Assembly (NCBI GenBank): GCA_023142595.1
Contig: JAGLJF010000024.1
Location: 1 to 52,876, forward strand
Direction: 5' to 3'
DNA from: Minisyncoccota bacterium
Lineage (GTDB): Bacteria > Patescibacteriota > Minisyncoccia > JAHIHE01 > JAGLIN01
DNA length: 52,876 bases
Shown piece after piece: positions 32,689 through 47,387 of the stretch. How positions within the stretch are numbered: position 1 is the first letter of the stretch; every line of letters starts with the position of its first letter. The notes under the pieces are model-generated. The model was not told the DNA's origin and ran no database searches. It saw only the letters and a program-made list of their open reading frames with translations. The position numbers were made by a program, and so were the translations under genes.

Positions 32689-33759
32689 TTATATTTTAAA
32701 TTCAATTACATCTCCATCTTGCACGATATATTCTTTGCCTTCAGTTCGCAAGAGTCCTTGGTCAATGGCATTTGACATCGAACCGGAATCTAATAATTTC
32801 TGCCAATTAATAATATTGGCGCGAATGAATTTTTCTTCAAAGTCTGAGTGAATTGCGCTGCCTGCTTGTGGGGCAGTGGAATCTTTTTTAATCGTCCAAG
32901 CATGAGTTTCAATTTTTCCTGTAGTAATATAAGTTATTAATCCAAGTAGCTCATAGCAATTTTTCACAAGGTCATCAAGACTGGAAACATTTTCATCAAG
33001 ATCTGTTTCATTTTTAAATTCTTGTACTTCCTCAGGTGACAAATCCATTAGGTCAAGTTCAAATTTGATTGGAATAAATAATTTATTTTTGATTTCTGGT
33101 AAAATTGAATTTTCTTCAATTTTTTGATCTTCGTTCACATTAACAACATAAAGAATTGGCTTGTTTGTGAGAAGTTGCAGACCTTTGATAACTTTTTTTT
33201 CATTTTCGCTTAGCTCAACGCTATTAGCAAATTTTTCATTTTCAAGAGCTAGTTTATATTTTTCCAGAACATTTTGAAGCTCAATTGCTTCCTTTTTTCC
33301 TGCTCTTACATCTCTTTGAATTTTTAATAAGCCCTTATTTATTGTTTCTAAATCAGCTAAAATCAATTCAAGATTAATTGTATCAATATCATCGCTAGGA
33401 TCGATTTTACCACCAACATGAATGATGTTTCCGTTTTCAAATCCACGTACAATATGAACAATCATATCGACTTCACGAATGTTGGAAAGAAATTTGTTTC
33501 CCAATCCTTCTCCCTTATGAGCATCTTTGACAAGTCCTGCAATATCTACAAACTCGATTGCAGTTGGAATGATTTTCTCCGTTTGTGAAAATTCAGCTAG
33601 CTTGGCTAATCTTTTATCGGGAACTTTGACAATTCCGACATTGGGGTCAATGGTACAAAATGGATAGTTTGAAATATCAATTTCTTTCTTGGTTATTGTT
33701 TTGAAAAGAGTTGATTTACCGACATTCGGCAAGCCTACAATTCCTACTGAAAATCCCAT
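32689..33759 (-). CDS. ychF: Ribosome-binding ATPase YchF
   Basis: GIVGLPNVGKST, NYPFCTIDPN, DIAGLV and EGKEYIVQDGDVI. Confidence 0.98.
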   Translation of the reverse strand: MGFSVGIVGLPNVGKSTLFKTITKKEIDISNYPFCTIDPNVGIVKVPDKRLAKLAEFSQTEKIIPTAIEFVDIAGLVKDAHKGEGLGNKFLSNIREVDMIVHIVRGFENGNIIHVGGKIDPSDDIDTINLELILADLETINKGLLKIQRDVRAGKKEAIELQNVLEKYKLALENEKFANSVELSENEKKVIKGLQLLTNKPILYVVNVNEDQKIEENSILPEIKNKLFIPIKFELDLMDLSPEEVQEFKNETDLDENVSSLDDLVKNCYELLGLITYITTGKIETHAWTIKKDSTAPQAGSAIHSDFEEKFIRANIINWQKLLDSGSMSNAIDQGLLRTEGKEYIVQDGDVIEFKI

Positions 33760-33792
33760 GGTATTAGTATTAAATAATTAAGTTTTATTTTC

Positions 33793-33969
33793 TGTCATTC
33801 TGAATTTATTTCAGAATCTTTGTTAAATTAGATTTTAGCTTATACTATCTACACAATGCTTTTAGGTATAATACATTCGTTGTTTTAATTTATTTAACAA
33901 GCAGTCAACAATTTATAGGCTAGTTTAAGTGTGATAGAAGGAAGATCCTGAATCAAGTTTAGGATGACA
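33793..33969. mobile_element. REPIN/MITE-like element of about 176 bp (subfamily 2)
   Basis: Terminal GTCAT hairpins; interior is similar to the reverse complement of 38823-38997. Confidence 0.7.
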
Positions 33970-34128
33970 GAATTTAGATATATTTTATCAGTAGACTAGG
34001 TAATGTCTGCGGGAATAATAGTCCCTTATTCTCTCCTAAAGCTTACTTTAAAATCTTAGTTAGGTCAATTTAGATTAAAATATAAACAAAAAAAGAAGGA
34101 ATGAATAAACCAGTGAATGAATGGCTTA

Positions 34129-34341
34129 TTAATCCCTTCTAACTAGAAACGCTACGGCTAATAGCCCAGCTATGGCGAAGATAGCCTCGAATCCTGGCTC
34201 GTCGCTTTCTGCAGTGCTTGTTTCCGTACTATTGATTTTTGTGATATTCGCATTTTCTTCCGCTGTGACATCTGTTGCTGTCGCAGTTGTTATTGTTAAT
34301 ATCAATATTATCAACAATACTATTGATGTTTTTATTTTCAA
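34129..34341 (-). CDS. Minimal secreted protein with archaeal PGF-CTERM sorting signal
   Basis: Signal peptide, T/S/E-rich linker with N-I-T and N-S-T sequons, then PGFEAIFAIAGLLAVAFLVRRD. TTG start preceded by GAGGAGAGAGGA. Confidence 0.8.
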   Translation of the reverse strand: MKIKTSIVLLIILILTITTATATDVTAEENANITKINSTETSTAESDEPGFEAIFAIAGLLAVAFLVRRD

Positions 34342-34480
34342 TTTCCTCTCTCCTCTTGGAATTTTACGATATTATAAAGATTATCATAATATATCACTCT
34401 GTCAATATTAATTATAATTTGCTCTTCCAAAATCTTATATTTCTGCTATAATAAAAGCATAAAAAATTAATAAAATAACT

Positions 34481-35563
34481 ATGATTGACTATTTTGAACA
34501 ATTAAACCAAGCATTGGGTATGTATACAGGAATAACAATTGCTTCGTATATTGTGGCAATACTTATTCTTGTCGTCTTTTTTATTCTAGCTCAAATCACA
34601 AATTTTCTATTTAATAAAGTATTCAAGGTTTTGACTGCAAAAACAAAAAATAGTACTGATGATAAAATAATGAAAATATTGAATATGCCGATATTTTATT
34701 CGGTCGTTCTTTTTGGTGTTTATCAGTCTTTTAGTTATATTGGTATATTGAGTAATTTTTCAGATGATTTTTCAAGAATTATAAAATCTTTTGCGATTAT
34801 AATCTGGATTTATGCAATATCAAAGCTTGTTAATGTAATAATTTCTGAAATTGGATTTAAGTTTGCAGAAAAAACAAAATCCACTCTTGATGATGAACTT
34901 ATGCCATTGTTTCAAAAACTAAGCAATATTGTTATTATTTTTGCTGGAGTAATGTTTTTGCTTAAAATGTGGAATATTGATATTACACCTCTTTTGGCTT
35001 CGGCTGGTATTATGGGTTTTGTGATCGCTTTTGCCGCTCAAGATACCTTGGCTCATTTATTTGGAGGAATTTCTATTTATTTTGACAAACCTTTTCGCGT
35101 AGGTGATCGTATTCAATTGGATAGCGCAGAATATGGAGATGTTTTGGAAATTGGAATCAGATCAACGAGAATCAAGACCGTTGATGAAACAGTTATTGTA
35201 ATTCCTAATAGTATAATTGCAGGTTCCAAGATCATAAATTATAATCAACCAGCAGCAAAAATTAAAGAAAAAATAATCATAAAAGTTGCATATGGGTCTG
35301 ATGTTGATAAAGTTAAAAAGATTCTTTTTGATATTATGAGAGAAATAGATGAAATTGAAAAGGATCCAGCTCCTGATGTTTCGCTTACTGAGCTTGGAGA
35401 CTTTTCCTTAAATTTTTTGATTGTAGCATGGGTTGATAGTCCTAAAAAGAAATTTACTGTCAAGACCAAGATAAACGAAGAGGTTTATAATAGGTTTAAT
35501 AAAGAGGGTATAATAATCCCTTATCCAACGCAAGATATATATTTAAAAAATAATAAAAAATAA
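34481..35563 (+). CDS. mscS: Small-conductance mechanosensitive channel
   Basis: FAAQDTLAHLFGG..I.FDKPFRVGDRI, IGIRST and IPYP; extended -10 TGCTATAAT at 34444-34452. Confidence 0.93.
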   Translation: MIDYFEQLNQALGMYTGITIASYIVAILILVVFFILAQITNFLFNKVFKVLTAKTKNSTDDKIMKILNMPIFYSVVLFGVYQSFSYIGILSNFSDDFSRIIKSFAIIIWIYAISKLVNVIISEIGFKFAEKTKSTLDDELMPLFQKLSNIVIIFAGVMFLLKMWNIDITPLLASAGIMGFVIAFAAQDTLAHLFGGISIYFDKPFRVGDRIQLDSAEYGDVLEIGIRSTRIKTVDETVIVIPNSIIAGSKIINYNQPAAKIKEKIIIKVAYGSDVDKVKKILFDIMREIDEIEKDPAPDVSLTELGDFSLNFLIVAWVDSPKKKFTVKTKINEEVYNRFNKEGIIIPYPTQDIYLKNNKK

Positions 35564-47303: not shown

Positions 47304-47387
47304 TGCCGGAGAGAGGACTTGAACCTCCATGGGATTACTCCCACAGCGACCTGAACGCTGCGTGTCTACCAATTTCACCACCCCGGC
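47304..47387 (-). tRNA. tRNA-Leu(CAG)
   Basis: GCCGGGGTGGTGAAATTGGTAGACACG-CAGCG-TTCAGGT-CGCTG, long variable arm, GGTTCAAGTCC...CCGGCA; CCA not encoded. REPs at 47141, 47434 and 47521 flank it. Confidence 0.96.

Follow-up and report, generated by a model that had tools for sequence, protein, structure and literature searches.

A cargo-less PGF-CTERM mini-protein conserved in a family of Candidate Phyla Radiation bacteria in which no archaeosortase is found

The stretch of DNA studied here, hereafter the window, is the 52,876-nucleotide contig JAGLJF010000024.1, which is the entire contig C17 of G000, the genome of a Minisyncoccota bacterium (GCA_023142595.1; 1.04 Mb in 74 contigs, 98.3% complete, 0.7% contaminated, 31.5% GC) of the Candidate Phyla Radiation (CPR; Minisyncoccota/Patescibacteria). 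On its minus strand, at 34129-34341, lies a gene for a 70-residue protein that consists of a signal peptide, a short linker and a C-terminal PGF-CTERM tail, without any folded cargo. The PGF-CTERM is an orphan here: the bacterial family in which it is fixed and conserved has no archaeosortase. The best explanation, to which we give slightly better than an even chance, is that the gene encodes a conserved and lineage-specific small membrane protein of one CPR family (f1), a surface micro-protein that is anchored by its C-terminus and not cleaved. As part of this explanation the C-terminal half descends from the stalk and anchor end of a Methanosarcinales-type surface protein, or the whole from an archaeal mini PGF-CTERM gene, and the capture would have taken place at or before the radiation of f1.

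The gene and its parts are as follows.

34129..34341, minus strand: mini PGF-CTERM gene, 70 codons plus a TAA stop, with a TTG start; from the list of open reading frames (ORFs), scores over the PF18204 and TIGR04126 cut-offs and orthologs in 19 of 23 family genomes.

34276..34341, minus strand: signal peptide, residues 1-22, with a K-rich n-region, an 18-residue hydrophobic core and an A-T-A cleavage-type site; from hydropathy, inspection and the retention of the segment in orthologs.

34201..34275, minus strand: linker, residues 23-47, acidic and Thr/Ser/Asn-rich, with two N-x-S/T sequons; hypervariable.

34132..34200, minus strand: PGF-CTERM tail, residues 48-70, with PGF at 34189-34197, a transmembrane helix and RRD; from the hidden Markov model (HMM) alignment at 34135-34197.

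34345..34356, minus strand: Shine-Dalgarno (SD) purine run with a GGAG core 8 nt ahead of the TTG; from the sequence.

A preliminary description, made from the letters alone, had listed a signal peptide, a linker of about 25 residues with two sequons, PGF, a transmembrane helix, RR and a strong SD, and each of these is indeed present. The best 12-residue Kyte-Doolittle window in the N-terminal segment (residues 1-22) has a value of 3.4 and the last 15 residues of the protein one of 2.9. The tail has the tripartite PGF-CTERM arrangement, with P49-G50-F51 followed by a helix (52-67) and R68-R69-D70 immediately before the stop codon. The sequons are N32-I-T and N37-S-T; by a rough estimate, two in 25 Asn/Thr/Ser-rich residues is about the expectation from composition alone. 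Pfam and NCBIfam scans gave no domain match in the linker, for which no fold is predicted. In the public annotation the protein (P0001) begins only at residue 13, an internal TTG, and with its 58 residues lacks most of the signal peptide; we prefer the longer start, which the SD and the N-terminus conserved in orthologs support. Public gene calls can thus truncate mini PGF-CTERM genes.

The tail is a genuine archaeal-type PGF-CTERM, as the preliminary description had held. PF18204, the Pfam model, matches the protein at 41.2 bits (cut-off 18.8, E 1.4e-10) and TIGR04126, the NCBIfam model, at 31.9 bits (cut-off 24.5), while a six-frame scan of G000 with the latter scored 32.6 bits at 34135-34197. 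Among 14 control genomes TIGR04126 exceeded its cut-off in two, Haloferax and Methanosarcina, and in none of the bacterial controls. The protein is not itself an archaeal S-layer glycoprotein: the Pfam scan gave no match to the S-layer domain PF07752, and of the models NF041431 (an S-layer model; residues 17-69, 32.2 bits, cut-off 600) and TIGR04216 (17.3 bits, cut-off 400) only the last ~55 positions align. Holin and bacteriocin readings were dropped, given a housekeeping context without phage or immunity genes and matches to EntV and YxzE far below the cut-offs.

That an ordinary bacterial C-terminal anchor came to resemble PGF-CTERM by convergence or chance is very unlikely. The models are short (23-28 positions) and weak sub-threshold matches occur in 11 of the 14 controls at E ≤ 1, which is what such a view would expect; yet the PF18204 score is twice its cut-off, an archaeal tail shares 22 of the last 23 residues, and TIGR04126 exceeded its cut-off in none of 400 other genomes sampled evenly across the phylum, where one weaker match (E 5e-4) lies within a 588-residue frame. 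Moreover, the majority consensus of 20 orthologs (alignment A1) is itself a PGF-CTERM domain.

Whether the genome encodes an archaeosortase, an exosortase or further PGF-CTERM genes had been raised in the preliminary description; we find no such enzyme and a single PGF-CTERM gene in G000, and likewise one per genome in those relatives that have any. TIGR04125 (archaeosortase A, ArtA), PF09721 (Exosortase_EpsH) and TIGR04178 gave no match at E ≤ 1 in G000, and TIGR04178 exceeds its cut-off in none of the 24 family genomes. As a positive control, the ArtA model finds ArtA in 5 of 5 archaeal genomes chosen for their look-alike tails, in four of them over the cut-off. Weak TIGR04178 matches in relatives (E 0.003-0.09) were rejected as archaeosortases; of the six loci concerned two were inspected (L010 and L011), and these encode antiporter-like membrane proteins of ~440-450 residues. 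Rce1-like/CPBP proteases, rhomboids, sortases and STT3 (PF02516) are absent from G000 at E ≤ 0.01. An encoded archaeosortase, several substrates per genome and an STT3-type N-glycosylation enzyme, all of which belong to an ArtA system, are therefore not found in G000.

The gene is in a conserved place in the family, between two bacterial genes.

32689..33759, minus strand: ychF (ribosome-binding ATPase), co-directional downstream neighbour; from the ORF list, named by reading of the sequence.

34481..35563, plus strand: mscS-type mechanosensitive channel gene, divergent conserved neighbour; from the ORF list, family named by reading of the sequence.

Family f1 has 24 genomes including G000, of which 23 can be examined, the contig of G019 ending at the locus. 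As synteny anchor we took ychF, which was found in each of 32 genomes from the order, and in the 23 genomes we read the 1.5 kb upstream. An ORF of 45-90 residues with an N-terminal hydrophobic segment, a short hydrophilic linker, a C-terminal helix and a basic end was found in 19 of the 23, among which G004 (17% identity) is a doubtful carrier; some carriers have a YchF that shares no more than 71% of its residues with that of the window. The mini-gene was not found upstream of ychF in G013, G016, G018 and G023, and G013 has a full-length match to the family profile on a different contig. By pattern search the divergent mscS-type N-terminus adjoins the locus in 16 of the 23 genomes, usually ~140 nt from the mini-gene.

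We define the protein family by a length of 50-90 residues, an N-terminal signal or lipobox, a variable linker, a conserved C-terminal helix and a location between divergent mscS and ychF. The window ORF has this layout and location and is the best match to the profile made from A1 (72.7 bits, E 2.1e-20). In a sample of 200 genomes of the class, full-length profile matches are confined to f1, where they occur in four of the six sampled genomes (G007, G012, G013 and G014); matches in G018 and in three non-f1 cases cover the N-terminal signal-like part only, within larger ORFs. TIGR04126 itself matches at E ≤ 0.001 in 6 of the 23 other family genomes, 1 of 4 sister-family genomes and 0 of 33 further relatives.

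Some loci depart from this pattern. In G009 (L026, 661-1489) a nucleotidyltransferase/HEPN-like gene pair, named by reading of the sequences, is inserted between the mini-gene and ychF. A genome of sister family f2 (L008, G027:C34) has a 75-residue ORF whose N-terminal segment is hydrophobic and whose tail is a P-G-T variant; this ORF adjoins a PHP-domain polymerase-like gene outside the ychF-mscS context; the mini-gene may have moved, or may have been acquired separately, in f2. Finally, G017:C49 (L066, 8797-9966) encodes a 389-residue multihaem cytochrome c that ends in a PGF-CTERM (PF18204, 27.3 bits) and sits among purL-type and CoA-biosynthesis genes on a 33.7-kb contig, with a GC content of 0.43 against 0.34 at the locus. 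This looks like a second, cargo-bearing archaeal-type import into f1, or a mis-binned contig.

Comparison of the orthologs indicates which part of the protein is kept. Among the 20, pairs are on average 44% identical over the helix, 25% over the N-terminal segment and 10% over the linker, and the best-kept positions are E52 (15 of 20), F55 (16), A56 (17), G59 (17) and L60 (15). Between G000 and G003, a genome of the same genus, the tail differs by 2 non-synonymous and 10 synonymous changes over 23 codons (dN 0.04, dS ~1.0, dN/dS ~0.04), the signal segment has 49 of 66 bases identical, and the linker, at 45 of 76 aligned bases, does not exceed the level of neutral sites; ychF of the same pair is 91.5% identical with a dS of 0.46. 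Judged from these comparisons the tail helix is the constrained part, under strong purifying selection, and the linker is constrained at most in composition and drifts about neutrally. At the N-terminus, a lipobox with Cys replaces the A-x-A site in G001 and G017, and G002 has a lipobox-like site, variants which support the predicted export of this end.

The PGF tripeptide has fared otherwise. PF18204 matches 12 of the 20 orthologs at E ≤ 0.01, and in the PGF columns P is kept in 13, G in 10 and F in 10. By reading of the alignment the tripeptide is intact in seven only (G000, P0002, G003, G001, G010, G009 and G021); the other orthologs have P-R/K/D-F, P-E-W, S-G-Y or P-G-P, with G replaced by R, K, D or E in places, or have lost the motif. 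The archaeosortase signature is thus undergoing loss in much of f1.

The signals for expression are also conserved. The SD is accompanied by a putative promoter.

34378..34405, minus strand: sigma-70-type promoter of the mini-gene, with TTGACA at 34400-34405, a 16-nt spacer and an extended -10 (TGnTAATCT) at 34378-34386; from cross-genome conservation.

Of 11 orthologous intergenic regions, nine share TTGACA and the extended -10, with a spacer of ~16-17 nt, the exceptions being G014 and G002. Because a generic promoter scan of 33600-34600 gave no excess over shuffled sequence (7 sites against 5.5) and placed a weaker site at 34383-34411, the assignment rests on this conservation. By reading of the 25 nt upstream, a GGAG/GAGG-type run shortly precedes the start in 13 of 18 orthologs. 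The 141-nt region from the mini-gene to mscS (34342-34480 in the window) is identical at 135 of 141 positions between G000 and G003 despite the ychF dS of 0.46, a degree of constraint beyond the needs of two promoters alone; this region has no Rfam match.

Where the tail comes from is indicated by its nearest relatives. The longer database matches are proteins of 380-890 residues with PF07752 S-layer domains and a PGF-CTERM (e.g. P0010-P0018), one of them named Candidatus Methanoperedens. Ten loci were confirmed in GTDB species genomes, namely Methanosarcinaceae, Methanoperedens (3), Methanothrix, Methanolobus, "uncultured archaeon" (2), "Methanobacteriota archaeon" and a "Bathyarchaeota" metagenome-assembled genome (MAG). 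The best tail match (L050, a Methanosarcinaceae MAG) is identical at 22 of 23 residues including the RR ending, while the DNA is identical at 48 of 66 bases, i.e. differs at 18 of 66; the likeness was therefore kept by selection on the protein and not by recency, and the archaeal origin is old. The CPR-derived profile matches tails in 141 of the 151 genomes of the archaeal class of L050, nearly all at the end of frames of 650-730 residues.

Cargo-less versions also exist in this class. In two of its genomes (G749:C268 and G675:C109) we found ORFs of 74 and 77 residues with a signal peptide, a Thr-rich stalk and a PGF-CTERM (PF18204, 29.5 and 32 bits) and, as in the window protein, no domain; both lie beside DUF1328 genes. 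They differ from the window gene in that their genomes encode ArtA, in their genomic context and in a longer stalk that is purely Thr/Ser/Pro-rich. When 1.84 billion representative proteins were searched with the profile, 891 matched at E ≤ 0.001, and among the 146 newly listed best matches 84 have at most 110 residues, 62 of which start with Met and a hydrophobic N-terminal segment. The cargo-less mini PGF-CTERM build is thus a separate class, widespread and common in metagenomes. We found no published description of the archaeal cargo-less class, though no literature search specific to it was made. Since such genes exist in archaea no internal deletion is needed, and the CPR lineage may have acquired a complete mini-gene rather than an S-layer gene whose interior it then deleted. 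As a side observation, in two Methanosarcinaceae-class genomes (L075, 4593-5463; L076, 4080-5070) the mini PGF-CTERM gene stands beside a gene for a DUF1328 small membrane protein, and the third gene of the neighbourhood, which is the same on both, encodes a Lys/Ala-rich repeat protein of ~96 residues without a Pfam match.

The preliminary description had proposed DNA acquired from an archaeal host or neighbour. As to ancestry this stands, since the nearest tails are Methanosarcinales-type and many belong to PF07752 proteins; as a recent import from a current host it does not, given the synteny in 19 of 23 genomes, the YchF divergence among carriers and the 18 differing bases. That the gene was transferred recently, arose by chimeric assembly or is a fragmentary, decaying pseudogene derived from an archaeal S-layer gene is contradicted by our data and highly improbable. 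Two observations might suggest such an origin: the alignment of NF041431 to residues 17-69, and a raised GC content at third codon positions (GC3) in the linker and tail of G000 (against genome-wide codon use, z 2.4 for the tail and 1.9 for the linker; against that of the locus, z 3.4 for the tail, with 11 of 24 codons where 4.6 are expected). The NF041431 score is, however, far under its cut-off, and the divergence of the tail DNA from its closest archaeal counterpart, the shared synteny, the tail dN/dS and the conserved promoter and SD all speak against such readings. The raised GC3 was not used as a sign of recent import, being seen in G000 only and not in G003, the tail of which is nearly the same (2 of 23 residues differ).

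A chimeric assembly, which the preliminary description had named as a possible refutation, is at odds with the synteny across genomes and with contigs from the Logan assemblies, one of 855 nt from run X1 and one of 909 nt from run X4, that match the window perfectly across the gene and its flanks on either side (33793-34647 and 33796-34704, respectively); X1 and X4 are possibly the source sample, and the synteny is the argument independent of them. Nor did the internally deleted remnant, suggested in the same place, survive the purifying selection on the tail, the conservation of promoter and SD and the existence of archaeal cargo-less genes.

For a conserved micro-protein of family f1 the following course of events can be proposed. 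A strong sigma-70 promoter of its own would drive the mini-gene, and translation would start at the TTG behind a strong SD; the sequence and its conservation show both signals. The product would be exported by Sec and lose its signal peptide after A22, whereupon the PGF-type helix would halt transfer and stay in the bacterial membrane, with RRD in the cytoplasm as predicted by the positive-inside rule. Since the genome encodes neither an archaeosortase nor any other sorting protease so far known, the tail would be neither cut nor lipidated, and a mature peptide of ~48 residues would result, exposing an acidic, Thr/Ser-rich and fast-drifting ectopeptide of ~26 residues. The helix probably makes a specific intramembrane contact, since it is constrained in sequence (E52, F55, A56, G59 and L60). 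Candidate roles are a surface coat, host contact or a partner of a membrane protein.

Set against the ArtA system as known from the S-layer glycoprotein of Haloferax volcanii (TIGR04126, PF18204 and TIGR04125), the window protein shares the signal peptide, the Ser/Thr-rich linker with sequons, the PGF abutting a transmembrane helix, the basic C-terminal cluster and scores over both cut-offs. It differs in being bacterial, in the lack of an ArtA or exosortase-family gene and of STT3, in a single instead of many substrates per genome, in having no folded cargo and in a PGF that has decayed in most orthologs. With the Methanosarcinales-type S-layer proteins (PF07752 plus PGF-CTERM) it shares the last 23 residues, 95% identical in L050, and an acidic or Thr-rich stalk before the tail; those proteins have 380-890 residues with S-layer domains, of which the window protein has none, and the tail DNA has diverged as described. 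A third comparison is with the orphan signals MYXO-CTERM and JDVT-CTERM: as far as the accessible part of the preprint goes (Haft, bioRxiv 10.1101/2023.06.07.544157), these too are tripartite with a sequence-conserved helix and had no known protease in the genome, and JDVT-CTERM too occurs about once per proteome. According to the same part of the preprint they have an invariant Cys and a co-occurring Rce1-like protease, whereas the window tail has no Cys and G000 no Rce1-like gene.

Several points weigh against an uncleaved f1 micro-protein. That the enzyme is absent was concluded from HMM searches, and the genomes searched are drafts; the removal of the signal peptide and the topology in the membrane are no more than inferred; and translation and expression are deduced from sequence, no RNA run being among the runs found to contain the stretch. 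The PGF motif and indeed the entire tail of G000 are perfectly archaeal-like, and the raised GC3 of this tail is found in none of the 18 other orthologs. Moreover, a sequence-specific and highly conserved helix has been taken as a sign of recognition by an intramembrane protease (Haft, accessible part of bioRxiv 10.1101/2023.06.07.544157), and therefore an unrecognised processing enzyme and processing by a partner organism are both kept as possibilities.

The first of these would have the tail be a working sorting signal, cleaved by an unrecognised bacterial enzyme of f1 unrelated to exosortases. The helix is conserved in sequence and not merely in hydrophobicity, as such a view would predict, and there is precedent in orphan sorting signals that were later paired with new protease families, e.g. 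the myxosortases (same preprint, accessible part). Nevertheless each genome has a single candidate substrate, all five known sorting-enzyme families searched for are absent from G000 and the signature tripeptide has decayed in most orthologs, and we consider this explanation unlikely.

The second would be cross-domain mimicry, which we regard as improbable: the bacterium would live on a host among the anaerobic methanotrophic archaea (ANME) or Methanosarcinales, and its peptide, carrying the S-layer anchor signal of the host, would be bound or processed by the host's ArtA. The peptide might then act as a decoy or inhibitor and weaken S-layer anchoring where the two cells meet, or it might become lipid-anchored to the host. 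The near-identity of the tail to one from Methanosarcinaceae, the S-layer proteins among the closest long matches, strong purifying selection on the tail only and a bacterium without its own archaeosortase would all fit, as would the presence of the window DNA in four cold seep metagenome runs of one study, possibly its source samples. A fifth run, from a second study, contained a fraction of only 0.15 of the sequence words and counts as no evidence. Patescibacteria that attach to or parasitise methanogens are documented, going by the accessible text of four reports (PMC9600506, PMC9763046, PMC12281837 and PMC10936435), which also agrees with mimicry. Against it, no host has been identified for f1, and ArtA is an intramembrane enzyme, so that the substrate helix must sit in the host membrane, for which no delivery route is known. 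The PGF motif is needed for ArtA processing in Haloferax, and it is intact in only seven of the 20 orthologs while the helix is nonetheless conserved. To the more specific proposal that the CPR family keeps a cargo-less copy of the S-layer anchor signal of its archaeal partner, engaging ANME/Methanosarcinales ArtA as a decoy or as a lipid-anchored substrate, we give a slim chance; if it were true, the tail sequence would double as a readable clue to host identity.

The remainder of the surroundings is bacterial as far as it was read from the ORFs (SSB, S6, YchF and MscS, named by reading of the sequences). An Rfam scan of the window gave a single tRNA, at 47304-47387, and nothing near the mini-gene. 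Between the mini-gene and ychF lies an inverted-repeat element (33790-33972), which the G003 locus lacks. Its arms, at 33790-33840 and 33922-33972, show 71% complementarity. In the cold seep runs the summed depth is 820-1820x over the left arm and 210-345x over the right arm against ~8-65x in the flanks, and many run contigs connect the two arms over different short inserts. A 35-nt piece of repeat arm gave 75 blastn-short matches of at least 20 nt in the genome (1.04 Mb), most of them paired in inverted orientation at distances of 100-400 nt. The element looks like a member of a dispersed family of palindromic repeats similar to miniature inverted-repeat transposable elements (MITE-like).

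It is already on record that the NCBI pipeline labels one ortholog "PGF-CTERM sorting domain-containing protein". A literature search linking PGF-CTERM or archaeosortase with Patescibacteria or CPR found nothing, subscription journals lying outside its coverage. The usual view makes PGF-CTERM an archaeal signal with archaeosortase A as its constant companion. In the present lineage, a bacterial one without the enzyme, it has become fixed, which offers a natural experiment on how a PGF-CTERM helix behaves when it is not cleaved. It is also a dated trace of gene flow from archaea to CPR, in a lineage from cold seep metagenomes, and the multihaem cytochrome of G017 points the same way. Finally, the mini-protein is a testable candidate marker for host contact or host identity, in a group whose hosts are almost all unknown.

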